A stretch of 64,000 nt of DNA from Candidatus Hadarchaeales archaeon (GCA_038851075.1 JAWCLG010000003.1:33820-97819), one strand, 5' to 3'; counted from the stretch's first letter, positions 16,883-53,607 are shown. Numbers and translations: made by a program. The notes: generated by a model not told the origin, from the letters alone.

Positions 16883-16893
16883 TTCTTAAATAT
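16883..16893 (-). promoter_or_regulatory. Candidate TATA box for the tRNA-Asn/5S/tRNA-Asp unit
   Basis: The minus strand reads ATATTTAAGAAA, centred about 30 nt upstream of the tRNA-Asn 5' end. This is the expected spacing for an archaeal TATA element. Confidence 0.35.
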
Positions 16894-18002
16894 CATCCCA
16901 TGAACACGTGCAGTCTTCTCAGGGCGTCCAGTTTTTCTCTTTGCCCGATACCGGCAGATTTAACCGCATCTCCCAGAATTTCTATCGTTCTCTGATAAGT
17001 TATTTTGTCTACCGGGTATGGAACACCGTCCTTACCTCCATGTGCGAAGCTGAACTTTACAGGGTCTTTCCATGAGGGCGGTTTTCCGTAAATTAGATCG
17101 GAAACTAGCGCCAGCGCTCGCACGGCTTTTGGACCTATACCGCGGATGGCAACAAGCCCCTCGTAGTTCTCGGGCTGAAGCTCGTATGCTCTCTGCAAAG
17201 CCGCGAGCGTTTGCTCCGTCAGCTTAGTTATCGCGTGAGAGGTTGGCATCACAAGCTTCGGCACTTTGGGACTTCTTTGATCAAAATATTCATCGAGGGA
17301 GCGCTGTTCCGCCTCGCGCACGTATGGCAGCAAACGCTTCGGGTTGTCCCGAACCAAATCTACGCAGGTCTTGCGCGTTTCTTCACTATCCCGCGCGGTC
17401 ATGTCCAACACCACTTCCTCGCTTCGGTCACCAATGATTCCAGAGTGAGGTTCCTCCACGAAACTTTTCACCCCTTCGAAGAGCCAGTGGTAACGCCTGG
17501 CCATTTGCCCGTGCATCCCCTGCTGTATCACCGCCCAGTCTCCGTTCTCTGTGAAAATGAAAACGTGATGATAAAGCTGATAACCATCTTGGACGCAGGC
17601 GCTGTCGACCTTTGCAGCCATCCTGCTCGCATGCTTTAACCTATCGATCGTATGCGAGGAGAGGGAGAAAACATCACCGGCCCTTTCAATTTCCTCAGGC
17701 GTGAGTCTCGATGTTCTTCCCTTTCCTCCGCACACGGATATCCCAAGCTCCTCCGGTCTTATCGCCTCTTTCAGAGCCCCACAAACGGTCGTTGTAAGTC
17801 CGGAGGAATGCCAGTCAAAACCGAGGGTGCATCCAAGAGCCTGAAAGAAAAAAGGATCCCCGATTCTTCTCAAAAATTCCTCTTGACCATACTCAAGAAC
17901 TATCGCCCGACATATTGCTTCGCTAAGGCATTTCATTCTCTTGAAGAGCCACGGCGGACATCTCCCTCCGTGAAGGGGCAGTTCAGCGATACCGGATTTC
18001 AT
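16893..18002 (-). CDS. DUF763-family protein with a C-terminal helix-hairpin-helix motif
   Basis: MKSGIAELPLHGGRCPPWLFKRMKCLSEAI...FFFQALGCTLGFDWHSSGLTTT is the DUF763 N-terminal signature. AIRGIGPKAVRALA is HhH-like. I chose the start at M27 of the track ORF. Confidence 0.7.
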   Translation of the reverse strand: MKSGIAELPLHGGRCPPWLFKRMKCLSEAICRAIVLEYGQEEFLRRIGDPFFFQALGCTLGFDWHSSGLTTTVCGALKEAIRPEELGISVCGGKGRTSRLTPEEIERAGDVFSLSSHTIDRLKHASRMAAKVDSACVQDGYQLYHHVFIFTENGDWAVIQQGMHGQMARRYHWLFEGVKSFVEEPHSGIIGDRSEEVVLDMTARDSEETRKTCVDLVRDNPKRLLPYVREAEQRSLDEYFDQRSPKVPKLVMPTSHAITKLTEQTLAALQRAYELQPENYEGLVAIRGIGPKAVRALALVSDLIYGKPPSWKDPVKFSFAHGGKDGVPYPVDKITYQRTIEILGDAVKSAGIGQREKLDALRRLHVFMG

Positions 18003-18084
18003 CAGAAAGCACGTGTAGTTTGAAAAAGATAAATCTAATATCAAATAGGCTGTGGAACGCAGGTCCGCTGTTGAAAGCATGGAG

Positions 18085-18300
18085 TCATTTTGTTAGATGG
18101 TACCCAGCGGCCTTTTCACGCGCCACGCGCTTGGCGTACCCCTTCGCCACGAGCTCCATCAGCGCGTTGTTAACCATTCCTTTCGGAAGTTTTGCAGCGC
18201 GCATGACGTCGTCGGCCGTCTTCAGGGTCGTTGGCGCGGTGGCACCAAGCTTTTTCATGATGTCATACACTTTCTGGGCATTCGGAGTAAGATCCGTCAT
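18085..18300 (-). CDS. Small (71 aa) winged-helix-like DNA-binding protein
   Basis: The helix-turn-helix-like layout KVYDIMKKLG...TADDVMRAAKLPKGMVNNALMELVAKGYAKRV is followed by a basic wing. The family is not identified. Confidence 0.4.
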   Translation of the reverse strand: MTDLTPNAQKVYDIMKKLGATAPTTLKTADDVMRAAKLPKGMVNNALMELVAKGYAKRVAREKAAGYHLTK

Positions 18301-18351
18301 TTTCTACACCTCTGTTTTCATCGGTCCTGTAGAAATTTAAAACATTCGCTT

Positions 18352-19200
18352 TTAAGGTTTTACCATGTCCAAACTGATGTCAATGGCCGGCGCCCGCATT
18401 GTTATGTGACCGGAGGAAATTATATCCACCCCTGTCGATGCGAAAGCTGAAATATTTGATGGTTTTATTCCTCCTGAAGCTTCAAGGATAACATGTGATC
18501 TGAGGCCTTCTCTCTTGAGATCCGCAACCGCTTTCCTTATTTCTCCCGGCTTCATGTTATCAAACATTATTATATCTGCCCCGGCCCGGGCAGCTTCGAG
18601 AGCCTCCTTTCTTTTTCTGACTTCGACCTCAACCCTGAGCGAAGGGTAAGCTGCCTTTGCCTTTTTAACCGCCTCCGATATGCTTCCTGAAAAGCGAAGA
18701 TGACTGTCCTTTATAAGAACGTGATCGCTGAGCGTCCACCTGTGAGGAACCCCGCCACCGACAATAACCGCACGCTTGTCAAAGTAAGTGAGAAGTGGCG
18801 CTGTCTTTCTGGTGGCGGCAATCTTAACATTTTTTGATTTATTTCTGGCGAGTTCTACAAGGGCCCTCGTTGCCGTGGCTATCCCGCTCATCCGCATCAT
18901 GAGATTCAGCGCAGTTCTCTCGGCGGCAAGTATGCCTCTGGCAGGCCCTTCGACAACCGCAACCGTCTCTCCCGACTTGACTTTCTCACCGTCCTTTTTT
19001 CTCGGAAATGCTCTAACACCAAACATTCTGAATATCTCTACAACCTCCGCCAAACCAGCCAGAACTCCGTCCTCATGAACCACTATCTCCCCTCTGCCGA
19101 CAGCCCCAGCACCCACCAGTGCCTTTGAGGTCACGTCCCCAGATCCCAGATCCTCTCTTAGCATCTCCTCCAATTTTCTTCTTATTTTAGGTTCAACCAT
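18352..19200 (-). CDS. nadC: Nicotinate-nucleotide pyrophosphorylase (quinolinate phosphoribosyltransferase)
   Basis: 282 aa with the typical NadC layout (LAAERTALNLMMRMSGIAT...ATRKT...DNM...EASGGI). It overlaps nadA by 8 nt. Confidence 0.92.
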   Translation of the reverse strand: MVEPKIRRKLEEMLREDLGSGDVTSKALVGAGAVGRGEIVVHEDGVLAGLAEVVEIFRMFGVRAFPRKKDGEKVKSGETVAVVEGPARGILAAERTALNLMMRMSGIATATRALVELARNKSKNVKIAATRKTAPLLTYFDKRAVIVGGGVPHRWTLSDHVLIKDSHLRFSGSISEAVKKAKAAYPSLRVEVEVRKRKEALEAARAGADIIMFDNMKPGEIRKAVADLKREGLRSHVILEASGGIKPSNISAFASTGVDIISSGHITMRAPAIDISLDMVKP

Positions 19201-20131
19201 GTGAAATCCTCCTGGTCAGCCTTATCATTCTCTCGGTAGCAGCCCTCGCCCTTTTAGCTATATCGTCCGGAACCTTCACAACATGTTTAAAACCTGCGAG
19301 CGATTCGTAGATTTTCTCAAGTGTGGTTCTCTTCATCTGTTCGCAGATGGCGTTTTCCAGCGCAGGGATAAAATCCCTGTCCGGATAATCCCTTCTCAGC
19401 CTTTCTACCATACCGACCTCGGTTGCTATTATGAATCTCCTCGCCGGGGAAACCATGACTCTCTTCACCATCTGACTCGTGCTGCATATGTGGTCCGCGA
19501 GATCCTGCACCCCGGGTTCGCATTCGGGATGCACCAGAACTTCGGCATCAGGGTGCTCCTTTTTTTTCAGCATGATGTCCCCTGGGGAGAAAATTCTGTG
19601 GACGTAGCAGTAGCCATAGTCGGGCAGTGGAATTACCTTCTTTTTCGTGCGCTTCTGAACGAACCATGCAAGGTTGCGATCCGGACCAAACAAAACTTTA
19701 TCCTCATCAAGCGCGTTTACGACCTCAGCTGCATTTGCCGATGTGCAGGTGACATCAGCCACAGCGCGCGCCTCTGCGGATGTGTTTACGTAAAGAACCA
19801 CCGCGGCGTCTGGATGTTTTTTCTTTGCCTCACGAACGAGTTGAGCCGGAAGCTGAGCAGCCATGGGGCATTTCGCATCTGGATCCGTAATCAAAACATT
19901 CTTATCCGGGTTTAGGATTGCAGCTGTCTCCGCCATGAAATCAACGCCCGCGAAAACAATAACGTCTGCTTTGACCTCAGAAGATTTCATCGCAAGCTCA
20001 AGTGAGTCTCCGACGAAATCCGCAATATCCTGCACCTCGAGCCTCTGGTAATTATGCGCCAGGACAATTGCGTTTTTCTCCTCCTTGAGACTTGATATCC
20101 GACTGACCAGATCTCTCTTGTCCAAATTCAA
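19193..20131 (-). CDS. nadA: Quinolinate synthase
   Basis: 312 aa. ILAHNYQRLEVQDIADFVGDSLEL, AKCPMA, VLYVNTSAE and HPECEP are NadA signatures. Confidence 0.92.
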   Translation of the reverse strand: MNLDKRDLVSRISSLKEEKNAIVLAHNYQRLEVQDIADFVGDSLELAMKSSEVKADVIVFAGVDFMAETAAILNPDKNVLITDPDAKCPMAAQLPAQLVREAKKKHPDAAVVLYVNTSAEARAVADVTCTSANAAEVVNALDEDKVLFGPDRNLAWFVQKRTKKKVIPLPDYGYCYVHRIFSPGDIMLKKKEHPDAEVLVHPECEPGVQDLADHICSTSQMVKRVMVSPARRFIIATEVGMVERLRRDYPDRDFIPALENAICEQMKRTTLEKIYESLAGFKHVVKVPDDIAKRARAATERMIRLTRRISHG

Positions 20132-20169
20132 CCCTCAAAAAATAAGGTAGAGGAGAACGTATAAATGTC

Positions 20170-21024
20170 CTATGTGCCCACTCTGATGCTCTCTCCGATG
20201 TTCTTCAGGGTACGTATTGCCGAAAGCGCTGCAAGATAGCTTGTCCTGCGGCTCTCCGGAAACGGAAGATTATGGGCTTGGGTAAAAAGAGATCCGAATT
20301 TTCCTCTGACCCAGATTTCATGAACATTTCGGCTGATTGTCGGATCTGCGACCACACGCACCCTCGTCCTGTCAAATCCTATGCCGGCCAGACTCAGGGT
20401 CGCTGCCACATTGACACTTGCCGGAAACGCCTTGACCGCCTCCCTGGCTGGACCTTCGAACACGATCTTGGGCGACTTTAAACCTTTCACGGATATCCTG
20501 CGGCTCTTCAGATAATCGCTGTAGGCAAGCGCTGAGGGCGGTTTTCTCGTCACAAGCAGGACTTTCTCTATGCCCCCAATCTGGCTGGCCTTAATTCCGT
20601 CTATACCGAGGATAGCTCCCGAAGGGATGTAAACCCTCCTGCCCTTCGCGTCTGCCATCTTTCTCACCCTGCTGAGAAGCTTTTCATCAGAAAATGCTCC
20701 GACGCTCATCACCATCAAATTTTTTCCGCTTTTCAGCACGTCCAGCGAATACTGTCTGACTGCTTCTTGAGACGCGGCCTCAACGACAAGGTCCAGATTC
20801 CTGTCAGAGTATATGTCTCCAGCCGTATTCGCGATCTTCGGCTTTTTTCTCAATTTTTTTGCAAGAGCATCCGATTTTTCAGGTACTATGTCGTAGAGCC
20901 AGCTGAGCCTGACACCTCCAATAACGCCGCTGTCAACAGCCTTTGCCAGAAGCGTGCCTATCGCACCGCATCCTATTATCGCGATCCTGATATGTACCCC
21001 CTCCAAAAAACTAGACACGGACAA
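20170..21024 (-). CDS. nadX: L-aspartate dehydrogenase
   Basis: A Rossmann motif IAIIGCGAIG sits at the N-terminus. The gene has NadX-like length and operon context with nadA and nadC. The start may be an internal GTG/ATG slightly downstream. Confidence 0.8.
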   Translation of the reverse strand: MSVSSFLEGVHIRIAIIGCGAIGTLLAKAVDSGVIGGVRLSWLYDIVPEKSDALAKKLRKKPKIANTAGDIYSDRNLDLVVEAASQEAVRQYSLDVLKSGKNLMVMSVGAFSDEKLLSRVRKMADAKGRRVYIPSGAILGIDGIKASQIGGIEKVLLVTRKPPSALAYSDYLKSRRISVKGLKSPKIVFEGPAREAVKAFPASVNVAATLSLAGIGFDRTRVRVVADPTISRNVHEIWVRGKFGSLFTQAHNLPFPESRRTSYLAALSAIRTLKNIGESIRVGT

Positions 21025-21054
21025 GGTATAATTGTTTTGAGCAGCGTGGAACGT

Positions 21055-22584
21055 TCAGGAGTAATTCTGAAGCGACTGAACGGTGGCTGGGCTTTTGGCT
21101 GCTCCATTTCCTTTAAACGGATTTATCCCCTCGTCCATGAGCCTGAGGTAGGGCTTGAGAGCACGTTTTAAAACCCGGATTATTCCATCCTTGAAAATAA
21201 TGCCCTTGAGCCCTCTTCCACCAAGATAGTCCTCAGCAAGCTTATCCACCCACCTGAAATCGTGGCGTATGCAGGCCGCCATCAGCTGCCAATGATCTGG
21301 TCTCATGTCTTTAGCAAGGAAAAACTTCTCGTTACCGAGTCCTCCCAGAGGCACCATGAAAAGCGGGACTACGAGGGACATGTAATCGTCAATTCTGTCC
21401 AACAGCTCGATGGTTTTCGCCGTATCCTCGGGAGTCTCTCCGGGAAGCCCCATTATGAGCGTGCAGCAGGGCACCCATCGATTGTCCGCAAGAACCTTGT
21501 GCGCTTCGACGACGACCTCCGGCCACTCCTCCGGTTTAAACGGCAGGGCTTTTCCGCGCATGTGCTTTTCAACTATTCTGGGTGATCCCGTTTCAAGCCC
21601 AACCTGACCGGAGATATAGGAGAGATCCTCGTCGGCCGAGGCGATCATCTCAGTTATTCTTTCGATCAGGCCGGGATTCGCCATAACTGAAGAAAATGCA
21701 AAATGAGATATCCAAACATGAGGGGTCAGCTTCAGGGCCTCTGAAAACAGTCTTATTACTCTCTCCTCGTTTGGGACAAGTCCATCGGCGCCGTACCTCA
21801 GCGTATCCTCGGCATGCAGCAATGCGCCCTCTGCCCCTCCAGCGAGGTTTATCTTTATCTCCTCCGTGATCTTCTCTATGGGCCTGCACCTGAGCTGTTT
21901 AAGGGTCGGAACGCAGAAATGACACCCTTTTCCGCACCCACGTGCGATTTCAACCAGACCGCACACCGTGGGGTTCCTTATATTGGGTATCTTCTCCAGC
22001 GGGACCACTTCACCGTGAACCACGCGTGGCACATCTTTTCCCTCCACAGCCCTGCGGAACATCTCGACTCCTGTTATTTCGCCCTCCCCAACGACGACGC
22101 AGTCTATTCCCATCTTAACGGCTATTTTTTCATCTGCCACCTGCCAGGCCCCCGGTCCGCCCACAATGACTTTGGCACCGCTGGACCTGAGAGCCGGGTC
22201 CATGATCAGTTTTCTGAAGAAAAGCGCTGAATACGTCTCTCTGCCGATTATGCTGCTGAAAGTAGAGGAAGCAGGGCCCAGGCCTAGCGGGTCATTCGCT
22301 GTGATCCCAACAACCTTCGTGTCCGGGCCTATAACTTTATCGAGATGCTCGGGATGGGCCACCTTTACATCGAAACCCTGCTCTAAGAGGGCCGCCTCCA
22401 TTTTTCTCAAACCGCAAGGGGCGCGCTTTGCTATCCCATTTTCCTTAGGGACCGAAGGACACAGAATTTTTTTGTACAGCCACTCGTCGAGCAAAGTCGG
22501 AGCGCAGGCCGCAAACCCTAAAAATATTCCCCCACCGTACTCTGACATCAGCGAACGGTCGGCAGTGAGGACTATCTGGCTCAT
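21055..22584 (-). CDS. B12-binding-domain radical SAM protein
   Basis: The CGKGCHFCVP motif fits CxxxCxxC. The N-terminal IVLTADRSLMSEYGGGIFLGF...APCGLRKMEAAL pattern is typical of the archaeal B12/rSAM family (MJ_1487/MJ_0865-like, from memory). Confidence 0.8.
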   Translation of the reverse strand: MSQIVLTADRSLMSEYGGGIFLGFAACAPTLLDEWLYKKILCPSVPKENGIAKRAPCGLRKMEAALLEQGFDVKVAHPEHLDKVIGPDTKVVGITANDPLGLGPASSTFSSIIGRETYSALFFRKLIMDPALRSSGAKVIVGGPGAWQVADEKIAVKMGIDCVVVGEGEITGVEMFRRAVEGKDVPRVVHGEVVPLEKIPNIRNPTVCGLVEIARGCGKGCHFCVPTLKQLRCRPIEKITEEIKINLAGGAEGALLHAEDTLRYGADGLVPNEERVIRLFSEALKLTPHVWISHFAFSSVMANPGLIERITEMIASADEDLSYISGQVGLETGSPRIVEKHMRGKALPFKPEEWPEVVVEAHKVLADNRWVPCCTLIMGLPGETPEDTAKTIELLDRIDDYMSLVVPLFMVPLGGLGNEKFFLAKDMRPDHWQLMAACIRHDFRWVDKLAEDYLGGRGLKGIIFKDGIIRVLKRALKPYLRLMDEGINPFKGNGAAKSPATVQSLQNYS

Positions 22585-27974: not shown

Positions 27975-29831
27975 TCATTTTGATAGATCTATGACAACGT
28001 AGTAAAGGTTTCCCTCAACTTTGTACCTCATCGGATGACCGCACTTTTTAAATATGTGCATCATCTTGGCGTTGTTCACAGCGACCCAAGCGATGAAGCT
28101 CTTGATTCCTTTTTTTGCAGCTATTTCCGTCAGATAATTCAAAAGCCTTGTCCCGAGCCCCCTGTTCTGCCAGTCGTCTCTCACAAGAAATGAAACCTCT
28201 GCAGTGTCAGTCCCTGGAATCTTAACGTAACTTCCAATCCCGACCATCGCCTCAACACCATTTTGCTCGATGACCGCAACTATGGCCATCTCATTTTCAT
28301 AATCCACGGTGACATATGGCCAAACCCTTTTTATTGGCATTGACTTCAGAGACCCAAGAAAACGGGTGTTCACGCTTTCCTTCGAAAGAGCGTAGAAAAG
28401 ATGCTGTTTAAGTGTCGCGTCGGAGGTTTTTATCGGTCTCAGGAGAACACGGGTTCCGTCCTGCAAAGACACCACTCTCTTTAGATCATCAGGATATTCT
28501 GCATCAGGGAAAGGAAGGACCTCCTCGGGCACTAACTTTTTTTCCTTTGCCCATTCCAAGAGGTGATTTCTGAACTTTGGATGTGCCACGTTAATAAGCG
28601 CAAGCGCACGCTCTTTAATCGTCTTTTCCCTCAATGAAGCCACGCCGTATTCGGTGATAACAAAGTCCACGTCTCCCCTCGTCAGCACCACCCCTGCCCC
28701 CTCGCTCAGCGTGGGTTTTATTCTTGAATACTCCCCCTCCTTCGCGGTAGAAGGAAATACCGTTATCGCTTTGCCTCCTCTTGACCTGATTGCTCCACGA
28801 ACAAAATCTGCCTGTCCCCCAAGTCCGCTGTAAAACCTGTAACCTATGGAGTCTGCACAAACCTGCCCCGTCAGATCCACCTCAAGCGCCTGATTTATCG
28901 CGACCATCTTATCATGCTGGCTTATCACGAAAGGATCGTTAACGTAATCAGACTCATAGAATTCCACCATCGGATTGTTGTCTATAAAGTCATAGAGCCT
29001 GCGCGTTCCCATCGCAAAGGAAGCGATGATCTTGCCTTTGTTTATTGTCTTTTTCTCGCAGGTGACCACTCCCTCCTCGACAAGATCAACCACGCCCTCC
29101 GTGAGCAGCTCGGTGTGTATTCCAAGGTCCTTTTTACCTTTAAGCGCCCCAAGAATTGCATTTGGAACCGTTCCGATACCAACCTGAAGCGTTGACCCGT
29201 CATCGATAAGATCCGAAACATACTTTGCAATCCTATCGGAGACTATATCTCCCTCCGAAGGCTGAAGTTCCAGAATGGGCTCATCGTGTTCAACGAATGC
29301 ATCAATCTCAGAAACGTGAACAAAGCTGTCGCCCAGAACCCTAGGCATGTGCCGGTTGACCTGGGCTATTACCAGCTTCGCGACCTTTGTGGCTGTTTTG
29401 GTTATCTCAACTGAAACTCCCAAGCTGCAAAACCCGTGCTCATCTGGAGGAGTAACTTGTATCAAAGCCACATCTATTGGAACCATGCCCCTTAAAATGA
29501 GTTTAGGGAGCTCTGAAAGAAAAACCGGAGTATAATCCGCCCTGCCTTCGGCCACGGCTTCTCTTGCATTAACTCCAACAAAAAAGGCGTTTAACCTGAA
29601 CCTTTCAGAATATCTCGGCTCAGCATAGGGCGCAACTCCAAGTGTATGAACGTGCAGAATTTCATTGTCTGAAAGATGATCTGCTTTTTCAACAAGACCC
29701 CTCACGAGATACTGTGGCTCTCCGCACGCTGACCCTATGAATATATGGTCCCCGGTCTTTACCATGCCTAGGGCCTCAACGAGACTCATTTTTCTCCTTT
29801 CATATGATTCCAGATTGTCACGAGAATCCAA
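27975..29831 (-). CDS. Acetyl-CoA hydrolase/CoA-transferase family domain fused to a C-terminal GNAT acetyltransferase domain
   Basis: The N-terminal ~460 aa carry YSGLGGQADFVRGA, the 4-hydroxybutyrate/acetate CoA-transferase signature. The C-terminal ~150 aa carry VRDDWQNRGLGTRLLNYLTEIAAKKG, the GNAT motif A (Q/RxxGxG/A). Confidence 0.8.
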   Translation of the reverse strand: MDSRDNLESYERRKMSLVEALGMVKTGDHIFIGSACGEPQYLVRGLVEKADHLSDNEILHVHTLGVAPYAEPRYSERFRLNAFFVGVNAREAVAEGRADYTPVFLSELPKLILRGMVPIDVALIQVTPPDEHGFCSLGVSVEITKTATKVAKLVIAQVNRHMPRVLGDSFVHVSEIDAFVEHDEPILELQPSEGDIVSDRIAKYVSDLIDDGSTLQVGIGTVPNAILGALKGKKDLGIHTELLTEGVVDLVEEGVVTCEKKTINKGKIIASFAMGTRRLYDFIDNNPMVEFYESDYVNDPFVISQHDKMVAINQALEVDLTGQVCADSIGYRFYSGLGGQADFVRGAIRSRGGKAITVFPSTAKEGEYSRIKPTLSEGAGVVLTRGDVDFVITEYGVASLREKTIKERALALINVAHPKFRNHLLEWAKEKKLVPEEVLPFPDAEYPDDLKRVVSLQDGTRVLLRPIKTSDATLKQHLFYALSKESVNTRFLGSLKSMPIKRVWPYVTVDYENEMAIVAVIEQNGVEAMVGIGSYVKIPGTDTAEVSFLVRDDWQNRGLGTRLLNYLTEIAAKKGIKSFIAWVAVNNAKMMHIFKKCGHPMRYKVEGNLYYVVIDLSK

Positions 29832-29940: not shown

Positions 29941-32037
29941 ATGGGCATGGAGTATATGCTCAGTCCTAAATCGGTTGCAGTCATAGGTGCAAGCAGGGAA
30001 CCCGATAAAGTCGGCTACAGAGTGCTGAAGAACATTGTCGAAGGTGGGTTTGGCGGCGGAGTATATCCAGTCAATCCCAATGCGGAAGAGATACTTGGCC
30101 TGAAATGTTTCAAAAATGTAGTCGATGTTCCTGATGATATCGACCTTGCGATAATATCGGTCCCGGCAAAAATAGTTCCATCTGTTGCAAGAGAATGCGG
30201 AAACAAGGGTGTGAAGGGGCTCGTCGTCATATCAGCTGGGTTTGGAGAAACCGGTGCCGAAGGTCTCAGGCTTGAGAGGGAACTGGCTAACACGTGCAAG
30301 GAGTATGGAATGCGCCTTCAGGGACCAAACTGTCTGGGAACGATAAACACCAGATTGAGGCTGAACGCCACATTCTCCAAGACCACTCCAATAAGTGGAA
30401 AGGTCGCGCTGTTATCACAGAGCGGTGCTCTAGGAAGCGCCATGCTGAACTGGGCGCTTGACAAAGGTGTGGGTTTCACCAACTTTGTGAGCTTGGGAAA
30501 TGAGGTTGACCTGACTGCTGCTGACTTTCTAGAGATGCTTGAAAACGATGATTCCACCAAAGCGATTGGGATGTATATCGAGGGGGTTAAGGACGGGCGA
30601 AGATTCATTAAAATATGCAGGAAAGTTTCACGCAAGAAACCGATCATCGTTCTCAAATCCGGAACGACAGAAACCGGAATAAAAGCCGTTTCGTCTCACA
30701 CCGGGTCCCTTGCAGGGTCGGATGTCGCATTTACTGCGGCCTGTAAAAAGGCAGGCCTCATAAGAGTCCTCAGCCTGGAGGATCTCTTCGACCTGATCAG
30801 GGGATTTGGGTCATTCCATCTAGTGAACAGCAGTGGAGTTCTGATTGTCACAAATGGTGGAGGCCCTGGCGTTCTGGCAGCCGATACATGCGAGATGGAA
30901 TCTCTCACGGTCCCGTTGCTTGATCAGGAGATCTATATGAAACTGAGAGAAATGCTTCCGCCACACGCCACAGTGCACAACCCGGTCGACGTCCTCGGAG
31001 ATGCCGATGACGGGCGCTACAAAAATGCCCTTGAGGTCTCTTTATCTAGCACGAAAATAGGCGGAGCCATAGTCATTGTAACTCCACAGGCGATGACCCC
31101 GCTGAGGGATATAGCACGCGCTCTGGCCGAGGTGAGGAAAATCTATCCCGATAAAATAATTCTGCCAGTCTTTATGGGAGTGTCCGGAGAGCCAATCGAT
31201 ATTTTGAAGAACAACGGCCTCCCGAACTACGAGTTTCCCGAATCAGCGGTAAAGGTGATGAGCAGGATGCATCAGTATACTCAATACCGTGCTGAACGGG
31301 AAGAACCGCCCGCAACTTTTGACGATTTCGATTACTCCAGAATTAAAAGCATCATAAGCCGGGTGAAAGAAAGCGGAAGAACCGCTATGACCGTAGATGA
31401 GTGTATCGATGTCGCTAAAGCATGCAATATAAATGTGCCAGAAATTGCCATAGCGAGGAATGCAGAAGAGGCTGTTGAGATTGCCGAGCGAATTGGCTAT
31501 CCAGTAGTGATGAAGGTGATCTCTCCAGACATCTTGCACAAGACAGACATCGGAGGGGTCAAACTCAACGTTAACGGAGCAAACGATGTAAGAAAAAATT
31601 ATGAACTTATGATGAGAAAAATAAAAACAGTACTCCCAGAAAGCAGGATATCTGGAGTGATGATCTACCGGATGGCTCCTCAAGGAAAAGAGATCATAAT
31701 AGGTGCAGTCAGGGATGCTCAGTTTGGGCCAATCCTCATGTTCGGGCTAGGAGGGATATATGTTAACTTTCTAAAAGATGTGGCATATGCAATGTGTCCA
31801 ATATCATTGAATGAAGCCAGTGAACTCGTCAAAGAAACAAAAGCTTATACTCTGCTGAGAGGGGTCAGGGGCGAACCTCCATCGGACACCGCATCTGTTA
31901 TTGACACCATACTTAGAATTTCCCATCTAATCAGCACCTTCGACGATATACTTGAGATAGAGATAAATCCGACTTTTGTTTACGGGGAGGGGAAAGGATG
32001 TCTTGCAATAGATATAAGAGCAGTGGTCTCTCAGTAA
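29941..32037 (+). CDS. acd: ADP-forming acetyl-CoA synthetase (fused alpha+beta, NDP-forming acyl-CoA synthetase family)
   Basis: N-terminal CoA-binding segment VAVIGASREPDKVGYRVLKNI, succinyl-CoA-synthetase-like ligase domain with SHTGSLAG (phosphohistidine loop), and C-terminal ATP-grasp domain. Confidence 0.9.
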   Translation: MGMEYMLSPKSVAVIGASREPDKVGYRVLKNIVEGGFGGGVYPVNPNAEEILGLKCFKNVVDVPDDIDLAIISVPAKIVPSVARECGNKGVKGLVVISAGFGETGAEGLRLERELANTCKEYGMRLQGPNCLGTINTRLRLNATFSKTTPISGKVALLSQSGALGSAMLNWALDKGVGFTNFVSLGNEVDLTAADFLEMLENDDSTKAIGMYIEGVKDGRRFIKICRKVSRKKPIIVLKSGTTETGIKAVSSHTGSLAGSDVAFTAACKKAGLIRVLSLEDLFDLIRGFGSFHLVNSSGVLIVTNGGGPGVLAADTCEMESLTVPLLDQEIYMKLREMLPPHATVHNPVDVLGDADDGRYKNALEVSLSSTKIGGAIVIVTPQAMTPLRDIARALAEVRKIYPDKIILPVFMGVSGEPIDILKNNGLPNYEFPESAVKVMSRMHQYTQYRAEREEPPATFDDFDYSRIKSIISRVKESGRTAMTVDECIDVAKACNINVPEIAIARNAEEAVEIAERIGYPVVMKVISPDILHKTDIGGVKLNVNGANDVRKNYELMMRKIKTVLPESRISGVMIYRMAPQGKEIIIGAVRDAQFGPILMFGLGGIYVNFLKDVAYAMCPISLNEASELVKETKAYTLLRGVRGEPPSDTASVIDTILRISHLISTFDDILEIEINPTFVYGEGKGCLAIDIRAVVSQ

Positions 32038-32053
32038 GGAGGTGGGCTGAAGC

Positions 32054-33112
32054 ATGACCGTTTCCTCGATATACGTAATTTCTCCGGCGGAATGCTCAGG
32101 AAAAACCAGCATCATAGTTTCCATGGCCATCAAAGCGAGGGAACTCGGAAAAAGCGTCGGGTATTTCAAGCCGATAGGATACAGATCTCCGGTGGAACAG
32201 ACCGAAGAGCACATTGACGACGATGCAAAAAATATTAAGGAGATACTCGGCCTTGAAGAAGAACCAGATGTCCTGTGTCCAGTCGTTATCGACAAACAAG
32301 ATTTTTTGAAGAATATCTCGCAAAAAAATGAAATAAGAAAAAGAATAATCGAATGCTATAAAAAAGTATCTAAAGGAAAAGATCTGCTGCTCATCGAGGG
32401 TCCCCACTCAATTTCAGGGGGAATATCTATCGACTGCGCAGCACCGGATCTAGCCAGAGAGTTTGGCTCAAGAATAATAGTGGCAGCAAACGCAGAAAAC
32501 GACTCATTTATGGAGGAGCTTCTACTTACCGTAAAATTCTGCGAGAGGTACAGTATAACTCCTGCAGGAGCGATACTCAACAAGGTTTCAGATTACTATT
32601 CTGAAGTGGAGAGCGCGGTGAAATCTATTCTCGAAAAAGAGGGAATCGAGCTGCTGGGATCTATACCAAAGAACGAGATACTCGGCTCACCCCGGGTTCT
32701 TGAGATAGTCGACTCTATTGGCGGAGATATCATCGCAGGAAGAGAGGGTTTGGGCAACATCGTCCAAAACCTGATGATCGGGGCAATGTCTCTGGAAAGC
32801 GCGATGAAACATTTCCGCAAGAGCACAAAAAAGCTCGTGATAGTCGGCGGGGACAGAACCGACATCATCTCGGCGGCTCTGGAAACGGGGGCCTCCGCGG
32901 TTGTCGTCACCGGAAATCTCTACCCGAGTGTAAAGATACTGCCAAAAGCGGACGAGCTTAAAACACCGGTGCTGCTTGTCCCATATGACACCTACACGGC
33001 GCTTAGCATGATTCAAAAAATAGTTGGGAAGATAAAACCCAATGACAGAGCTAAAATTGACGTCATAAAAAAATTTGGAGCAAACATCAACTTGGATAAA
33101 ATCATGAACTAG
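32054..33112 (+). CDS. Pta-N-terminal-like protein: DTBS/CobQ-type P-loop domain plus DRTGG domain
   Basis: The SGKTSI P-loop with YFKPIG is followed by the DRTGG signature VIVGGDRTDIISAALETGASAVVVTG. Confidence 0.7.
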   Translation: MTVSSIYVISPAECSGKTSIIVSMAIKARELGKSVGYFKPIGYRSPVEQTEEHIDDDAKNIKEILGLEEEPDVLCPVVIDKQDFLKNISQKNEIRKRIIECYKKVSKGKDLLLIEGPHSISGGISIDCAAPDLAREFGSRIIVAANAENDSFMEELLLTVKFCERYSITPAGAILNKVSDYYSEVESAVKSILEKEGIELLGSIPKNEILGSPRVLEIVDSIGGDIIAGREGLGNIVQNLMIGAMSLESAMKHFRKSTKKLVIVGGDRTDIISAALETGASAVVVTGNLYPSVKILPKADELKTPVLLVPYDTYTALSMIQKIVGKIKPNDRAKIDVIKKFGANINLDKIMN

Positions 33113-35567
33113 AAAACTTTCTGGTACCAGCCCCTATCTCCCTGACAATCCTTCCAACGTTTTCTCTCGGATTGGACGAGTTATAAATCGCGCTTCCCGC
33201 TATGCATATGTCGGCTCCAGCGGCGACCACATCTCCAGCGACGCCTTCCTTTATGCCTCCGGCGACGGCCAGCAGAAAGTCTCCGGCAACTTTCTTTGCC
33301 TCCGATATGAGCTGCGCCTGTTCATATATTCCCCTGCCCTTCAGCTGCTCGCTTATTCCCCTGTGGATGCAGAAGATAACCCTGTTTTCATGACCCCCAA
33401 GGAGTTCCTTCAGCTCTCTCATAACATGCAACGGGTTCAAACAGTCTATGAAATCCACGAGAACCGCTCTGTCCCATCTTGTGGCCTCGCTGATCGCCTC
33501 CATTACCTTGGTCTTGCCCCCGATGGCCAGTACAGCTGACACGTCGGCCCCTGCTCTGAACGCTATTCTGGCTTCCAAGTTACCTACGTCCATGGTCTTC
33601 AGGTCAGCTACAATTATGGCATCCGGAGCGACCTTTCTGAGCGCCGGGATAAGACGATCGACTCCATGCCTTTTGACTGCTGGTGTGCCAGCCTCGATGA
33701 TACGTGCACCTCCAAGGTAAGCATCCTTCGCAACTGAGGAGATCGTTTCAATGTCTGAGTCCATATCCAGAGCGACCTGAAGCGCGGGAAGAGAGAGCCT
33801 CTCGATGGGGCTCAGAACGACCTCAAACTTCCTGGCAAACTGAACCCTCCTCAACCGCACTGGTTTCGGAACACCCTTGGTGCTCCATTCCCTCTCGGAA
33901 TAATAAGCTCTGATAAGCCCCCTAAGATCAATGCCAAAATCTCCCGGAAGCCTGTCATCCCCGGGCCCAAATTTTTCTCTGATGTTGAAAAGACGCTCTG
34001 TGTCATAAATGCGTGACCCGACATCGTGGAGATACTCTCCGGTCCACAGCATACCCGTGACCGCGGTCAGCGCCTTTGCCACATCGTCAAGCTCATAGTC
34101 AAGCGTTGCGAAAAGCGCGAATCCATGGTACTTGCATCCGATCATTGAATCGTAAACCGCAAAAGCATCCTGCATTCTCCTCACCAGCCTTGCCTTTCCC
34201 CTGTCTGATCTCGGGTCCACAAACTCCGGATTACTCAGTATCTCTGGTCCAATGGTATACGCACGGAGGTGACACGCCCCCCTATTTGATGTCGCATAAG
34301 CGAGTGCTATCCCTCTCGCGCCTCTTGGATCATATGCCGGAAGTTCAAGTCCCTTCACGATCGGTGCCAGCAGCCCCTTTACCCTCCCGATTTTTGCAAG
34401 TCCAAACGAATACTTTGACCTTCCACCCGCTATCTCCCTGATAAGTCTCCTCGCATCCTCGATTCCTTTTATTTCTTCAGCCTTCCTTGCGTATCCCAGA
34501 ATTCCGCCGACAGAAATCGCATCAAGACCCAGCTCATCGCACATCCTGTTGAGCTCCGAGATCTGTTCGTACTCATAAAATCCTGAATTCGGACCCAGCA
34601 TCACGATATTCTCGAACTCCGCGCCCTTACCCTCCCGCCCTCCGACATTGACCCATCTGCCGCAGGCCGTGGGACACGCGAAACAAGCGGTCTTTCTGAC
34701 GAGATATTTCTCCCGCACCGTCTCTCCGGAAAACGCGTCCACGTCATCAAAACTCAACCTTCTTCCAGAGAAGTTATCGTTTGGGAGCATGCCCGCGGCT
34801 GTTATCCTGTGAACCAGCAGCGCGGTTCCAAATCTGGCCAGGCTTCCATCGATTCCTGTGATGGGGTGCGTCTCAACTATCTTTCTGATCTTTTTCAGTA
34901 CTTTTTCAAACTCCCCGGGGTGCTCAACCCTTACCTTTTGGGTACCTCTCACAACCACCGCCTTCAGCCGCTTTGATCCCATAACCGCGCCCATACCGCA
35001 CCTTCCCGCAAATCCCTCCCTGCCGCCCTTTCCGGCGGTGTAAACGCACGCCATTCTCGCCAGATTTTCACCTGCAGGACCTATCGTCGCCACCCATGAA
35101 CCACCGTGTGAATTAAGAAGCTCGCTGCCAGCTTCCACCGTGCTTTTGCCCCAGAGTTCCCCTGCATCCTCAATCGAGACATTTTCACCATCCACTGAGA
35201 GATAAACGGGCTTTTTGGAGGCGCCTTCAAAAACGATACCGTCAAAGCCGGCCATCTTCAGGAAAGCACCGAACGACCCGCCCATCAGCGAATCCGCCAC
35301 GGTCCCTGTCAAAGGAGACTTTGAACAAACAGCGGTTCTGCCGGCTCCCGGATACGGAGTTCCGGTGAGGGGCCCTGTCATGAACACTATCCTGTTTACA
35401 GGACTCAGCGGATCGGTTCCGGGAGCAAGCTCATCGTAGAGCAGCTTTGCGGCGTACCCCCTTCCGCCAAGATAGTTGTAAGCCACCGAGAGGTCCAGCT
35501 TCTCAACTTCTGTTCGCCCTTCTGTGAGGTCAACGCGCAGAATCCTTCCCGCATAACCCCCGACCAT
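33102..35567 (-). CDS. Fusion protein: aldehyde:ferredoxin oxidoreductase (AOR family, tungstopterin) N-terminal ~590 aa plus 3-hexulose-6-phosphate synthase-like (OMPDC superfamily) C-terminal ~226 aa
   Basis: The AOR part has MVGGYAGRILRVDLTEG...YNYLGGRGYAAKLLY and the Cys cluster context CFACPTACGRW. The C-terminal part starts at LPALQVALDMD (nt 33782 downward) and continues with ADLKTMDVG and AVAGGI...AGSAIY, as in HPS. It is one uninterrupted ORF. Confidence 0.85.
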   Translation of the reverse strand: MVGGYAGRILRVDLTEGRTEVEKLDLSVAYNYLGGRGYAAKLLYDELAPGTDPLSPVNRIVFMTGPLTGTPYPGAGRTAVCSKSPLTGTVADSLMGGSFGAFLKMAGFDGIVFEGASKKPVYLSVDGENVSIEDAGELWGKSTVEAGSELLNSHGGSWVATIGPAGENLARMACVYTAGKGGREGFAGRCGMGAVMGSKRLKAVVVRGTQKVRVEHPGEFEKVLKKIRKIVETHPITGIDGSLARFGTALLVHRITAAGMLPNDNFSGRRLSFDDVDAFSGETVREKYLVRKTACFACPTACGRWVNVGGREGKGAEFENIVMLGPNSGFYEYEQISELNRMCDELGLDAISVGGILGYARKAEEIKGIEDARRLIREIAGGRSKYSFGLAKIGRVKGLLAPIVKGLELPAYDPRGARGIALAYATSNRGACHLRAYTIGPEILSNPEFVDPRSDRGKARLVRRMQDAFAVYDSMIGCKYHGFALFATLDYELDDVAKALTAVTGMLWTGEYLHDVGSRIYDTERLFNIREKFGPGDDRLPGDFGIDLRGLIRAYYSEREWSTKGVPKPVRLRRVQFARKFEVVLSPIERLSLPALQVALDMDSDIETISSVAKDAYLGGARIIEAGTPAVKRHGVDRLIPALRKVAPDAIIVADLKTMDVGNLEARIAFRAGADVSAVLAIGGKTKVMEAISEATRWDRAVLVDFIDCLNPLHVMRELKELLGGHENRVIFCIHRGISEQLKGRGIYEQAQLISEAKKVAGDFLLAVAGGIKEGVAGDVVAAGADICIAGSAIYNSSNPRENVGRIVREIGAGTRKFSSS

Positions 35568-35615
35568 GTTACCACAAACTAATTATCGGTAGAATAAATA
35601 ACATCTTGGGGCACT

Positions 35616-36470
35616 ATGAAGGTAACTGCGAACAGCATCCGGGAGATGAAATCCAAGGGAGAAAAGCTGGTGATGGTTACCGCATACGACTTTCCCACAG
35701 CGGCAATTCTTGATGCGGCTGGAGTCGACTCGATACTCGTTGGTGACTCTGTCGGGAACGTGGTACTCGGATACAGAGACACCCTCCGGGTCACTGTGGA
35801 GGACATGATCCATCACCTGAAAGCCGTTTCGAGGGGAACTGAAAGAGCGCTTGTGGTTGGAGACATGCCATTTATGTCGTATCAGGCCAGCGAAGAGGAT
35901 GCTGTGAGGAACGCGGGCAAGCTGTTCAAACAGGGGGGAGCCGAGGCCGTCAAGGTTGAGGGTGGTGGCCCGATAATCAGAAGAATCCGGGCCATAGTTG
36001 AATCCGGAATGCCCGTTATGGGACACCTCGGCCTGACGCCCCAGTGGTATCACCAGTTCGGAGGGTTCAAAGTACAGGGAAAGACAGGATCAACCGCGAG
36101 GCAGATACTGGATGACTCGGTGAAGATCGAGAGAGCTGGAGCCTTTGCACTTGTCCTCGAGTGTATTCCGTGGCAGCTGGCCAAGCTGATAACCGAAAAG
36201 CTGGAAATCCCTACCATAGGAATAGGGGCCGGACCTTACTGCGATGGACAGGTGCTCGTGCTTCACGACCTGATCGGGATGTCCGATGCCCAGCACAAAT
36301 TCTCCAAGACCTACGCGGACGTGAGGGGCATCATATCCAAGGCGGTGTCCGAGTTCAGAAACGACGTGAGATCGGGAAAGTTTCCGACGCTCGCTCAGAG
36401 CTACGAGATGCCTAGGGAAGAAATGCGAAAGATGCTCTCGGAATTCAGGAAGAAAAGAAAACATTCTTAA
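35616..36470 (+). CDS. panB: 3-methyl-2-oxobutanoate hydroxymethyltransferase (ketopantoate hydroxymethyltransferase)
   Basis: LVMVTAYDFPTAAILDAAGVDSILVGDSVGNVVLGY and GHLGLTPQ are PanB signatures. Confidence 0.92.
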   Translation: MKVTANSIREMKSKGEKLVMVTAYDFPTAAILDAAGVDSILVGDSVGNVVLGYRDTLRVTVEDMIHHLKAVSRGTERALVVGDMPFMSYQASEEDAVRNAGKLFKQGGAEAVKVEGGGPIIRRIRAIVESGMPVMGHLGLTPQWYHQFGGFKVQGKTGSTARQILDDSVKIERAGAFALVLECIPWQLAKLITEKLEIPTIGIGAGPYCDGQVLVLHDLIGMSDAQHKFSKTYADVRGIISKAVSEFRNDVRSGKFPTLAQSYEMPREEMRKMLSEFRKKRKHS

Positions 36471-36564
36471 TTCATCCTTTTTTGACCCAGGAAGGACTTA
36501 TGATGCGGTAGGGTTAAATACACCTGAAAATAGGAATAAACAGTTAAAAATGGAGGTGTGCTGA

Positions 36565-53365: not shown

Positions 53366-53607
53366 TTTCAGCCACTCTCCTTTTTTTGATCTATTTCTCA
53401 CAGATTAAATCAGTACAGGATAAAAATATAACCCATAGTGCACAGTTTTAGAGTACTGGGGCAGTAAATTGCACAAACATGAGAAAAACCCGTTGATCAT
53501 GTTTTTTCACTGCCTCGCAGGCGACCTGCAGGCTACGCTCGAACTTGCTCAGCCTGTTTATCCTGAGACAAATGGTCTACGGTGGTTCAACCCTTATCCT
53601 CACATAA

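Follow-up and report, generated by a model that had tools for sequence, protein, structure and literature searches.

Several described enzymes resemble parts of the protein analysed here, which is encoded by a Candidatus Hadarchaeales archaeon. In the Fae-HPS of methanogens (NF009833), a hexulose-6-phosphate synthase (HPS) barrel is fused to a formaldehyde-consuming module and converts hexulose-6-phosphate to ribulose-5-phosphate (Ru5P). Its N-terminal Fae part joins formaldehyde with H4MPT in a reaction that involves no redox step; the fusion is thought to capture formaldehyde at once and has been proposed to supply pentoses in archaea lacking the pentose phosphate pathway (PPP) (PMC5241800). 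The HPS-PHI of Thermococcales (9lj9, NF041755) is likewise a fused archaeal HPS of the reverse ribulose-monophosphate (RuMP) route; however, it combines HPS with the neighbouring step of the pathway, and the formaldehyde stays free. Known aldehyde:ferredoxin oxidoreductases (AOR) sensu stricto are either stand-alone proteins of about 605 aa or subunits of multi-subunit complexes, and none carries a fused sugar-phosphate aldolase. MSBL1/Hadarchaeota are described as being without an oxidative PPP, with HPS and PHI predicted instead (PMC4725937). In contrast to Fae-HPS, the HPS partner in our protein is, judged by its domains, an oxidoreductase of about 580 aa of the tungstopterin/[4Fe-4S] type, which putatively converts formaldehyde to formate with reduction of ferredoxin; a Fae domain is not present. 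Apart from HPS, only AFOR_N and AFOR_C are present as domains, and the known types of HPS fusion (HPS-PHI, Fae-HPS, HPS-MenG/RraA) were rejected on this ground; the models NF041755, NF009833, and NF005442 match via the HPS part alone. The protein possesses no SIS/PHI domain, and its PHI must be encoded elsewhere. HPS fusions as such are already known; AOR is a new fusion partner for HPS. A reading made from the sequence alone had supposed this architecture to be uncharacterised and, in agreement, no description of an AOR-HPS fusion was found in the full-text literature searched.

The window, i.e. the whole 64-kb stretch of DNA that was analysed, contains the fusion gene on the minus strand (33102..35567), and all features of the protein given below lie on this strand. 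The gene is one uninterrupted ORF of 821 aa with an ATG start and the stop codon at 33102-33104. Because an in-frame stop is located only 5 codons upstream of the ATG, the start is unambiguous. The proposal of a single frame joining an AOR-family to an HPS-like domain was exact: Pfam finds AFOR_N (PF02730; residues 7-209, 34941..35549; E=2.1e-77, 259.8 bits vs a cut-off of 29.8, match 1-199/199), AFOR_C (PF01314; residues 222-575, 33843..34904; E=1.8e-83, 281.2 bits vs a cut-off of 27, match 1-383/385), and OMPdecase/HUMPS (PF00215; residues 595-806, 33150..33785; E=3.2e-21). The motif LQVALD, at which the HPS domain had been said to begin, starts with residue 596 at nt 33782, the position given in the sequence-only reading. 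Such a gene could also arise spuriously through chimeric assembly or through loss of the stop between two adjacent genes by sequencing error; in Bathyarchaeia, a stop does separate the halves in some versions, and one copy (L141) is frameshifted. However, neither a stop nor a frameshift occurs in the ORF, and an independent assembly from Logan (SRR27730043, L001) aligns to window positions 30604-36492 over 5,891 bp without a mismatch and with a single gap, and encodes an identical fusion protein that is continuous across the junction. Protein P0001 from a Ca. Hadarchaeales MAG is 100% identical as well. The composition is uniform (GC/GC3 of 0.540/0.569 vs 0.535/0.577 in the two halves of the gene), and a continuous frame with a conserved linker recurs in at least 110 clusters from many samples. 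An artefact is thus effectively refuted and has next to no probability in our judgement; the AOR-HPS fusion is confirmed as real.

A survey of its phyletic distribution, which the sequence-only reading had suggested, revealed that the fusion is widespread in archaea. These at least 110 protein clusters with AOR-HPS architecture include at least 62 (90% identity clustering) of 797-830 aa, which are 52-80% identical to the window protein and have the same three domains, and at least 45 further three-domain clusters at 39-43% identity. Carriers are Hadarchaeota, Bathyarchaeia, Nezhaarchaeota, Methanomethylicia/Methanosuratincola, and DPANN-labelled bins. In a tree of the AOR domains all fusions group: clade 1 joins the split genes described below with a bootstrap value of 100, clade 2 joins a 990-aa form with a value of 89, and the two clades are sisters with weak support (27). 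A tree of the HPS domains did not support a single origin of the clade-1 and clade-2 fusions. Apart from one exception at D660, none of the residues for cofactor binding or catalysis in either half varies among 66 fusions (36 of clade 1, 30 of clade 2). Both active sites have been under purifying selection across the family.

By sequence, the C-terminal domain is a (βα)8-barrel of the HPS type, for which we predict the reversible reaction of formaldehyde and Ru5P to hexulose-6-phosphate. Its closest solved relatives are HPS structures, namely 9lj9 (1.4e-29, 34-40% identity), 3ajx, and 3f4w; Foldseek gave TM-scores on target of 0.88-0.89 for the latter two. NCBIfam models of HPS reach 129-139 bits, compared with 32-53 bits for KGPDC/UlaD/PyrF (PRK13306 53, UlaD 40, PyrF 32-40), and are more than 75 bits ahead of every non-HPS model. 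The scores do lie below the curated cut-offs: 139.5 bits vs 274 for the top-scoring model NF009833 (Fae-HPS), 133.3 vs 500 for HxlAB, and 128.8 vs 200 for TIGR03128 (RuMP_HxlA). KGPDC (UlaD/SgbH, 1kv8) shares the OMPDC-suprafamily barrel and its constellation of D-x-K-x-x-D, Glu, and His. In our protein, these are the catalytic and metal-binding motif D655-x-K657-x-x-D660 (33588..33605, on β3), E625 (β2), and H735 (33363-33365, β6). Together with D601 at the end of β1 and G770-G771 of the phosphate loop (within A769-G-G, 33255-33263), they align with solved HPSs and, save for the one D660, do not vary in the 66 fusions. The discriminating positions differ, however: where KGPDC (models at 40-53 bits) has E112, R139, and T169, the window protein has D705 (33453-33455), I738, and A769. 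In the alignment, these fall on D112, V139, and A169 of 1xbx, a KGPDC triple mutant (E112D/R139V/T169A) with enhanced HPS activity, and they are invariant or conservatively substituted across the family. Against the window barrel, KGPDC mutants score 36.5 and 34.4 bits vs 32.0 for the wild type. An identity as KGPDC (UlaD/SgbH) or OMP decarboxylase was rejected on the basis of these residues and scores, which settles in favor of HPS a distinction that had been left to HMM searches.

The scores below the cut-offs, together with the fact that the HPS domain forms a subfamily of its own (bootstrap 96, with no more than 9 representative clusters reaching E<1e-30), make a modified substrate possible. 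The protein would then be a divergent HPS-like aldolase or decarboxylase for another keto-sugar phosphate, whose different aldehyde the AOR half would oxidize within an undescribed sugar-phosphate pathway. The replacement of the D/E pair following the catalytic His by S739/E740 (HRGISEQ vs HTGIDEQ/HAGLDEQ in solved HPSs) fits this idea, whereas the metal, catalytic, and phosphate-binding residues as well as the three HPS-specific positions are all HPS-like. Moreover, clade-2 fusions of the same architecture possess HPS domains that are of the ordinary archaeal type in the tree, four loci (L005, L091, L137, L138) have a PHI or PHI-like gene as a neighbour, and genome reconstructions of MSBL1 place this HPS as a RuMP enzyme (PMC4725937). 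We therefore regard a different substrate as highly improbable.

The N-terminal half belongs by sequence to the AOR family: both of its domains are full length, and the cluster ligands and the catalytic Glu and His are present. The CxxCxxxC motif (34662..34685), which aligns with CYACPIGC of Pyrococcus furiosus AOR, contributes C295, C298, and C302 to the ligands of the [4Fe-4S] cluster, which are completed, according to conservation, by C478 (34134-34136) as the fourth. In full-length alignments of AFOR_C to 1aor and 9mqx, the catalytic E319 (34611-34613) corresponds to the second E of EYE and the catalytic H433 (34269-34271) to the His of GGCH in P. furiosus AOR (1aor); presumably they are the equivalents of Glu313 and His448 of that enzyme. 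All six residues are invariant in 71 out of 71 sequences (66 fusions and 5 split genes). In the same set, R36, R77, G96, G97, and R189 of the N-terminal domain are invariant, and D349 and D473 are also conserved. These Arg, Asp, and Gly positions and the likeness of the fold lend indirect support to the predicted binding of a tungsten-bis-pyranopterin and to a ferredoxin-linked oxidation of aldehydes. TM-scores on target are 0.85-0.89 for five structures of the AOR family.

The sequence-only reading had left open whether this half is of the AOR or the FOR type. Membership of the AOR family with a complete module was borne out; an FOR type was not. Bit scores are 381 for 9mqx, 362 for 1aor, 348 for 9g7j, and 333 for 8c0z, the AORs sensu stricto, with which the window protein shares the three-domain fold, 35-38% identity, TM-scores on target of 0.86-0.89, the CxxCxxxC...C pattern, and the catalytic Glu/His pair. 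P. furiosus FOR (1b25) has the same family and fold (TM-score on target 0.85), and the proposed reaction is nominally its own; nevertheless, it is more distant by sequence (270 bits), and the window protein lies outside the FOR clade, so that membership of the FOR subfamily was rejected. The GAPOR model reaches only 55 bits. Being AOR-like does not count against formaldehyde as a substrate, since characterised AOR-type enzymes oxidize it, one with a Km of 93 µM and a Vmax of 25 U/mg (PMC10816221), another with 4.1 U/mg (PMC6365974). In sum, the computational checks were favorable and support the earlier interpretation, with the AOR rather than FOR type as the one nuance.

The two halves are connected by a basic linker of about 20 residues (576-594, 33786..33842), whose P587 and P594 are conserved according to per-column counts of the alignment; in clade 1, P587, P594, and Q597 are near-invariant. 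The linker of clade 2 is even shorter and follows a canonical AOR C-terminus. The AOR module of clade 1 is shortened, as AFOR_C scores 281 bits compared with 458 in the clade-2 representative P0137. The interdomain geometry, for which an AlphaFold prediction had been proposed, was modeled as a single confident body (pLDDT 93.9, pTM 0.90); this pTM value suggests a fixed packing between the domains.

Relatives of the fusion occur in split and in reduced form. In Bathyarchaeia, the halves are adjacent genes with the HPS start 1-2 nt past the AOR stop, as found on 7 independent contigs. Genes for HPS without AOR are nested at three or more places within the fused clade, and the AOR module was lost or has decayed repeatedly among relatives; the cells can therefore do without it, and coupling is optional. 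What stays constant is HPS, the housekeeping component of the pair: in locus L127, an AOR-less HPS occupies the identical slot in the order NADK-eIF5A-panB-HPS-DRTGG-ACD, which matches the window. This pattern, the mostly unrelated housekeeping genes nearby, and the proximity of the AOR half to broad-specificity AORs would be expected if the activities were uncoupled, i.e. if a general aldehyde:ferredoxin oxidoreductase that handles the aldehydes formed when amino acids or sugars are fermented had been fused to a housekeeping HPS for co-expression or stability. On the other hand, two AOR clades that diverged deeply have both retained the pairing as a fusion, and translationally coupled split genes preserve it as well. 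Hadarchaeota MAGs also own unfused, ordinary AORs (L014, L017, L051), yet the HPS-linked AORs form separate clades. The packing suggested by the model and the fact that the sole aldehyde released by HPS is an AOR substrate speak against independent activities, too, and we consider them quite unlikely. The number of fused clusters, the split pairs on 7 contigs, and the common grouping of the AOR domains indicate that the pairing of AOR and HPS is selected.

In our preferred reading, which we consider probable from the sequence evidence, the protein is a bifunctional enzyme of central pentose metabolism that runs the reverse RuMP route and oxidizes the released formaldehyde to formate on ferredoxin. 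A separately encoded PHI would convert fructose-6-phosphate (F6P) to D-arabino-3-hexulose-6-phosphate, which the Mg2+-dependent C-terminal barrel would cleave to Ru5P and formaldehyde. Ru5P would lead to ribose-5-phosphate, PRPP, and nucleotides; the N-terminal tungstopterin/[4Fe-4S] module would oxidize formaldehyde to formate and pass two electrons to ferredoxin. Removal of formaldehyde would serve detoxification and also exert a pull on the unfavorable retro-aldol step. The net reaction would be F6P + H2O + 2 Fd(ox) → Ru5P + formate + 2 Fd(red), which would parallel the oxidative branch of the PPP with a link to ferredoxin. Methanogen Fae-HPS follows the same logic, except that here a cofactor-independent oxidative sink would replace H4MPT. 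We infer that the flux runs in this direction and that the AOR half acts on formaldehyde with ferredoxin as electron acceptor; the same holds for any channelling. The fusion probably shows how these cells dispose of the formaldehyde released by HPS.

The genomic context offers several links to pentose metabolism. In two loci of one Hadarchaeota lineage (L091/L005, 59% identical), the gene order is PRPP synthetase, RuBisCO form III, AOR-HPS, and a tandem-SIS protein that matches PHI best of all families (TIGR03127, 1.8e-35; custom PHI profile, 3e-41); an IF-2B-family isomerase and a PfkB kinase are close by. A canonical PHI adjoins the family-1 HPS in L137 and L138; in L138 it is a fragment at a contig edge, detected by tblastn only. 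Not counting this fragment, just 3 of the 71 family loci have PHI as a neighbour. Furthermore, an AMP-phosphorylase-like gene is located two genes from the fusion in L090, and an IF-2B-family gene is near it in L002/L003. Otherwise, the neighbourhoods are mostly housekeeping or anabolic and unrelated, and the 64-kb window yielded no gene for PHI, Fae, transketolase, or any other step of pentose metabolism.

Such neighbours as RuBisCO and PRPP synthetase would also suit a sugar-phosphate cycle that assimilates C1 compounds or CO2. In this assimilatory direction, strongly reduced ferredoxin, e.g. from the oxidation of CO or H2, would drive the AOR half from formate to formaldehyde, which the fused HPS would condense with Ru5P in a forward RuMP cycle. 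HPS and PHI are each reversible (PMC5241800), and so is the AOR family, reduction of acids by AOR being documented (PMC10816221). A fusion pays most when the intermediate is toxic and thermodynamically scarce; here it would hold free formaldehyde low and thus pull the uphill reduction. Formate reduction to formaldehyde is, however, strongly uphill, with an E0' of about -0.53 V. No formate dehydrogenase, formate transporter, or CODH was found beside the fusion in loci with annotated neighbours, where synteny is housekeeping and anabolic. As AOR-less HPS genes occur in the same slot, the conserved role does not depend on formaldehyde supplied by AOR, and nucleotide synthesis in PPP-less archaea requires the reverse direction. 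For these reasons, we judge assimilation to be unlikely.

The AOR-HPS pairing recurs widely in uncultured archaea and, as predicted from the domains, brings a step that makes pentose phosphate and an aldehyde-oxidising tungsten enzyme together in one protein. The oxidative reading can be extended, tentatively and with slightly more doubt than confidence, to a previously unrecognised ferredoxin-linked route from hexose to pentose in anaerobic archaea (F6P → hexulose-6-phosphate → Ru5P + formaldehyde → formate + 2 reduced ferredoxin), in which the tungsten site would take formaldehyde straight from the HPS barrel. If true, this would answer what becomes of reverse-RuMP formaldehyde in archaea in which H4MPT/Fae is missing or not used. 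Functionally, the route would correspond to the oxidative branch of the PPP, yielding low-potential electrons instead of NADPH, and the same machine might also run in reverse, assimilating formate.

Direct reading of the sequence revealed a divergent intergenic region of 48 bp between the fusion gene and panB (35568..35615). It contains two AT-rich, TATA-like boxes as putative promoters of the two genes: AATAAATAA on the plus strand (35593-35601) precedes the ATG of the fusion by about 26-34 nt, and TAATTAT (35581-35587) precedes that of panB by about 29-35 nt.

The AOR-HPS fusion is encoded on the reverse strand by an unbroken frame of 821 codons with an ATG start (window 33102-35567, -; taken from the ORF list). 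Because an in-frame stop lies five codons 5' of this ATG and the N-terminus MVGGYAGRILRVDL agrees with the family consensus, the start codon is secure. Within this one ORF, Pfam assigns AFOR_N (residues 7-209; 2e-77, covering the whole model), AFOR_C (residues 222-575; 2e-83, 383 of 385 model positions), and OMPdecase/HUMPS (residues 595-806; 3e-21). These assignments bear out the single 821-aa frame combining AOR and HPS that had been claimed in a sequence-only reading; the start of the HPS part, which that reading had placed at LQVALD (nt 33782), corresponds to residue 596. A stop or frameshift was not seen in a separately assembled contig (SRR27730043), which shows 0 mismatches over window 30604-36492 and encodes an identical protein. 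GC and GC3 are equal between the AOR and HPS halves. Full-length orthologues of the same architecture fill at least 62 clusters (clustered at 90% identity) with 52-80% identity; at least 45 further clusters have it at 39-43% identity. The interdomain linker is conserved. Given the identical second assembly, the even GC and GC3 values, the many orthologous clusters, and the conserved linker, the frame is no artefact, and we give next to no credence to the idea that the fusion is not genuine.

The N-terminal ~580 residues belong to the family of tungsten aldehyde:ferredoxin oxidoreductases (AOR) and are complete. End-to-end alignment to solved AORs gave 381 bits for 9mqx, 362 for 1aor, 348 for 9g7j, and 333 for 8c0z; WOR5 and BamB are remote relatives. 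The formaldehyde:ferredoxin oxidoreductase (FOR) of P. furiosus, 1b25, is clearly more distant. Of the initial label "aldehyde/formaldehyde" oxidoreductase, the AOR-family part was thus confirmed, whereas the FOR type was not (270 bits for 1b25 versus 381 for 9mqx). The ligands of the [4Fe-4S] cluster are C295-x-x-C298-x-x-x-C302 and C478, and E319 and H433 align with the Glu and His that are catalytic in 1aor. All of these residues, together with conserved Arg, Asp, and Gly positions, are invariant among 66 fusions and five split genes. An AOR-type enzyme of Thermoanaerobacter has a Km for formaldehyde of 93 uM and an activity of 25 U/mg (PMC10816221), and one of Aromatoleum oxidizes formaldehyde with 4.1 U/mg (PMC6365974). 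Since AOR-type enzymes oxidize formaldehyde, an AOR-type rather than FOR-type module is no obstacle to a function as formaldehyde sink.

By sequence criteria, the C-terminal barrel is HPS-like. The top five NCBIfam models are all HPS (129-139 bits), versus 40-53 bits for KGPDC/UlaD models and 32-40 bits for PyrF; the nearest solved structures are the HPS enzymes 9lj9 (1.4e-29), 3ajx, and 3f4w. Invariant in this domain, save for one case at D660, are D601, E625, D655-x-K657-x-x-D660, H735, and A769-G-G. Gerlt and colleagues reportedly shifted KGPDC towards HPS by the exchanges E112D, R139V, and T169A. These mutant names agree with PDB titles, and the positions correspond to D705, I738, and A769 in the window protein; moreover, the KGPDC mutants outscore wild-type KGPDC. 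With HPS models at 129-139 bits versus 32-53 bits for KGPDC/UlaD/PyrF, and with specificity residues of the HPS type, the decision between HPS and KGPDC/OMPDC fell in favor of HPS, as had been supposed. The domain stays under the curated TIGR03128 cut-off (128.8 vs 200) and belongs to a small separate HPS subfamily, for which an exhaustive search gave 9 representative clusters at E<1e-30 (bootstrap 96 in an NJ tree). That it acts on a modified sugar-phosphate substrate is, in our judgement, very unlikely.

The AlphaFold2 model of the fusion is confident throughout (pLDDT 93.9, pTM 0.90), its sole ill-defined stretch being the loop after H735. The pTM value implies that the AOR and HPS modules hold a defined relative position, as far as the model can indicate. 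In a Foldseek search, AORs matched one part and HPS the other, and no solved protein with both was found. An arrangement in which the two activities are co-located but uncoupled appears quite unlikely to us.

Most archaea lack the oxidative pentose phosphate pathway (PPP); they obtain Ru5P through the RuMP route in reverse, which costs one formaldehyde per pentose. In archaea without oxidative PPP, Ru5P is made from F6P via reversed PHI and HPS reactions, and formaldehyde is released (PMC3189178, PMC5241800); MSBL1/Hadarchaeota have been reconstructed with this PHI/HPS reverse route (PMC4725937). In methanogens, Fae-HPS is believed to take up the formaldehyde immediately (PMC5241800). By analogy, AOR-HPS is probably a reverse-RuMP HPS with an oxidative formaldehyde sink. 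The HPS barrel would cleave hexulose-6-P to Ru5P and formaldehyde, and the AOR module would convert formaldehyde to formate, reducing ferredoxin via its [4Fe-4S] cluster. Such a sink would hold formaldehyde low, pull the retro-aldol reaction, and recover two low-potential electrons. As in the Fae-HPS of methanogens, an HPS would be joined to a formaldehyde consumer; in contrast to Fae-HPS, the sink would be oxidative. The same enzyme might be run in the opposite sense, towards formate assimilation, which we regard as unlikely.

To our knowledge, the AOR-family enzymes known so far are stand-alone proteins or complex subunits, and most members of this family have no assigned in-vivo function. 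Acting as a formaldehyde sink, AOR-HPS would give the family a new physiological role and would connect the synthesis of nucleotide sugars with both the ferredoxin pool and the availability of tungsten. The fate of reverse-RuMP formaldehyde in anaerobes other than methanogens is a standing question, to which AOR-HPS offers a concrete answer that is testable also in the cultured carrier genus Methanosuratincola. The fusion may also be of interest to synthetic C1 biology, as a module that leads from formate/formaldehyde to sugar and has its own formaldehyde buffer. HPS fusions already known are HPS-PHI, Fae-HPS, and HPS-MenG/RraA (PMC5241800; NCBIfam models); AOR-HPS is an HPS with a formaldehyde-handling partner and constitutes no new category. 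The architecture had been noted as not characterized, and indeed no mention of an AOR-HPS protein was found in the literature searched, absence there being no proof of its being unpublished. As far as we can tell, it is visible in databases yet neither recognized nor characterized. Public names of the family's database entries (P0001-P0120, P0425-P0465) are inconsistent; in use are 'orotidine 5'-phosphate decarboxylase/HUMPS family protein', 'aldehyde ferredoxin oxidoreductase', '3-hexulose-6-phosphate synthase', '3-keto-L-gulonate-6-phosphate decarboxylase', and 'DUF561'. Recognizing the fusion would correct this annotation; the linkage would escape any pathway reconstruction in which HPS and AOR are counted apart.

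A phyletic survey, which the sequence-only reading had suggested, located AOR-HPS in Hadarchaeota, Bathyarchaeia, Nezhaarchaeota, Methanomethylicia, and DPANN-labelled bins. The whole-protein profile search of genome contigs, which was keyed to AOR motifs, is no census; it gave at least 12 fusions, and most loci were ordinary AORs. Metagenome contigs were rescanned using an alignment of the HPS subfamily only. Clade 1, which contains the window protein, is hosted by Hadarchaeota/MSBL1 and Bathyarchaeia; the attribution of one clade-1 cluster (P0011) to Hodarchaeales (Asgard) is doubtful, as the same 90% cluster has a member labelled Hadesarchaea. Hosts of clade 2 (~830 aa) are Nezhaarchaeota, Methanomethylicia with Methanosuratincola among them, other Thermoproteota, and Bathyarchaeia; the clade also holds a ~990-aa form with an additional half-barrel from DPANN-labelled bins. 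In this longer form (L012:425-3418; P0107, P0115, P0131; bins labelled Aenigmarchaeota/Nanohaloarchaeota), a canonical AOR is followed by a ~160-aa partial OMPdecase-like stretch and a full HPS barrel. Both domain trees were computed by NJ with a custom script, and their deep nodes are without support. In the AOR-domain tree, bootstraps are 100 for clade 1 and 89 for clade 2 together with the 990-aa form, the sister pairing being weak (27); in the HPS-domain tree, clades 1 and 2 do not group. The Verstraetearchaeota literature describes Methanomethylicia as being without the H4MPT methyl branch; if this holds, a sink independent of H4MPT would be sensible there.

Besides the fused state, three other states were found. 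On seven independent contigs of Bathyarchaeia (L085-L088, L130-L132), the genes are split, and an HPS of 264-271 aa starts 1-2 nt past the AOR stop. Because they are nested inside clade 1, the split genes are secondary fissions. The split AOR comprises 562 aa and ends with 'YxLRGW'; the linker becomes an N-terminal extension of HPS. On about a dozen contigs (L104, L107, L111-L118, L121, L127), an HPS of ~240 aa and of the window-type subfamily stands alone beside panB in the window's syntenic slot, with the order NADK-eIF5A-panB-HPS-DRTGG-ACD in L127; no AOR ORF was detected anywhere within these loci. The HPS-only genes branch from within the fused clade in at least three places, which implies that these lineages lost the AOR module repeatedly. 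Finally, uncultured Thermoproteales-like Crenarchaeota encode 602-666-aa proteins (L138:135-1961, L140:8810-10657, and P0124-P0127) in which ~380-430 aa of degenerate AOR-like sequence precede an intact HPS domain of family 1. The AOR-like region retains the N-terminal strand motif 'ILxxDLS' and a relic CxxCxxxC; TSNRGxCH and the pterin-binding motifs are gone, and to all appearances an AOR module has here decayed to a pseudo-enzyme. Taken together, the split, HPS-only, and decayed states indicate that HPS is the constant element and the AOR part an accessory, which lineages acquire, retain, split off, inactivate, or lose. As HPS stays constant, this variation serves as a natural experiment on the conditions under which a sink is needed. 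A different arrangement was seen in P0128 (968 aa), a multi-HPS-PHI fusion in which three consecutive OMPdecase/HPS-like stretches precede a SIS domain.

A conserved operon around AOR-HPS was rejected, as neighborhoods vary between lineages; archaeal housekeeping genes commonly show such variable contexts. In the Hadarchaeota genome GCA_048620695.1 (L091) and in L005, genes for PRPP synthetase, RuBisCO form III, AOR-HPS, and a tandem-SIS protein are co-directional; the fusion also has an IF-2B-family isomerase (of the MtnA / ribose-1,5-bisphosphate-isomerase type) and a PfkB kinase in its vicinity. The tandem-SIS protein (396-399 aa; L005:3235-4434, L091:12703-13893) is encoded directly downstream of AOR-HPS. 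Both of its halves are PHI-like, PHI is its best family (TIGR03127 1.8e-35; PHI profile 3e-41), and its 27 clusters (P0270-P0296) are confined to Hadarchaeia/MSBL1; judged from these matches, it may be a PHI with a duplicated domain. In L137, ~1.5 kb separate the HPS gene from a canonical PHI, and L138 likewise has one near its HPS gene. Further neighbors of AOR-HPS are an AMP-phosphorylase-like gene two genes away (L090) and an IF-2B-family gene (L002, L003); in L006 and L113, RuBisCO is found within ~9 kb. Every one of these informative neighbors has its place in pentose, nucleotide, or RuBP metabolism.

In the window itself, which derives from a Candidatus Hadarchaeales MAG, the fusion gene stands alone, flanked by convergent and divergent neighbors; L089 has the same synteny. 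On the convergent side lie the gene of a DRTGG/AAA_26 protein (window 32054-33112, +) and that of ADP-forming acetyl-CoA synthetase (ACD; window 29941-32037). The 3' ends of the fusion (-) and the DRTGG gene (+) overlap by 11 nt (window 33102-33112), leaving no intergenic space for a terminator. The other side holds panB, eIF5A, NAD kinase, PIN, PhoU, and PHO4. No RuMP, PPP, or C1 gene was present among the scanned window neighbors, and PHI was absent from the 64-kb window according to tblastn with two approximate PHI probes and a profile of 40 PHIs. Adjoining ACD, a 618-aa protein (window 27975-29831, -) combines acetyl-CoA hydrolase/transferase N and C domains with a C-terminal GNAT domain. 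A further group of genes (window 16893-22584, -) begins with a radical-SAM protein, continues with a cluster for NAD de novo synthesis with aspartate dehydrogenase (20170-21024, -), NadA (19193-20131, -), and NadC (18352-19200, -), and closes with a DUF763 protein (16893-18080). Between window 48000 and 58000, GC drops from ~0.50 to 0.40-0.46. This block, which may be a laterally acquired glycan-utilization island, holds a GH94 glycan phosphorylase (50936-53401) and several predicted membrane proteins; beyond GH94 lies an ABC sugar-transporter set with a MalK-like ATPase at 62090-63199.
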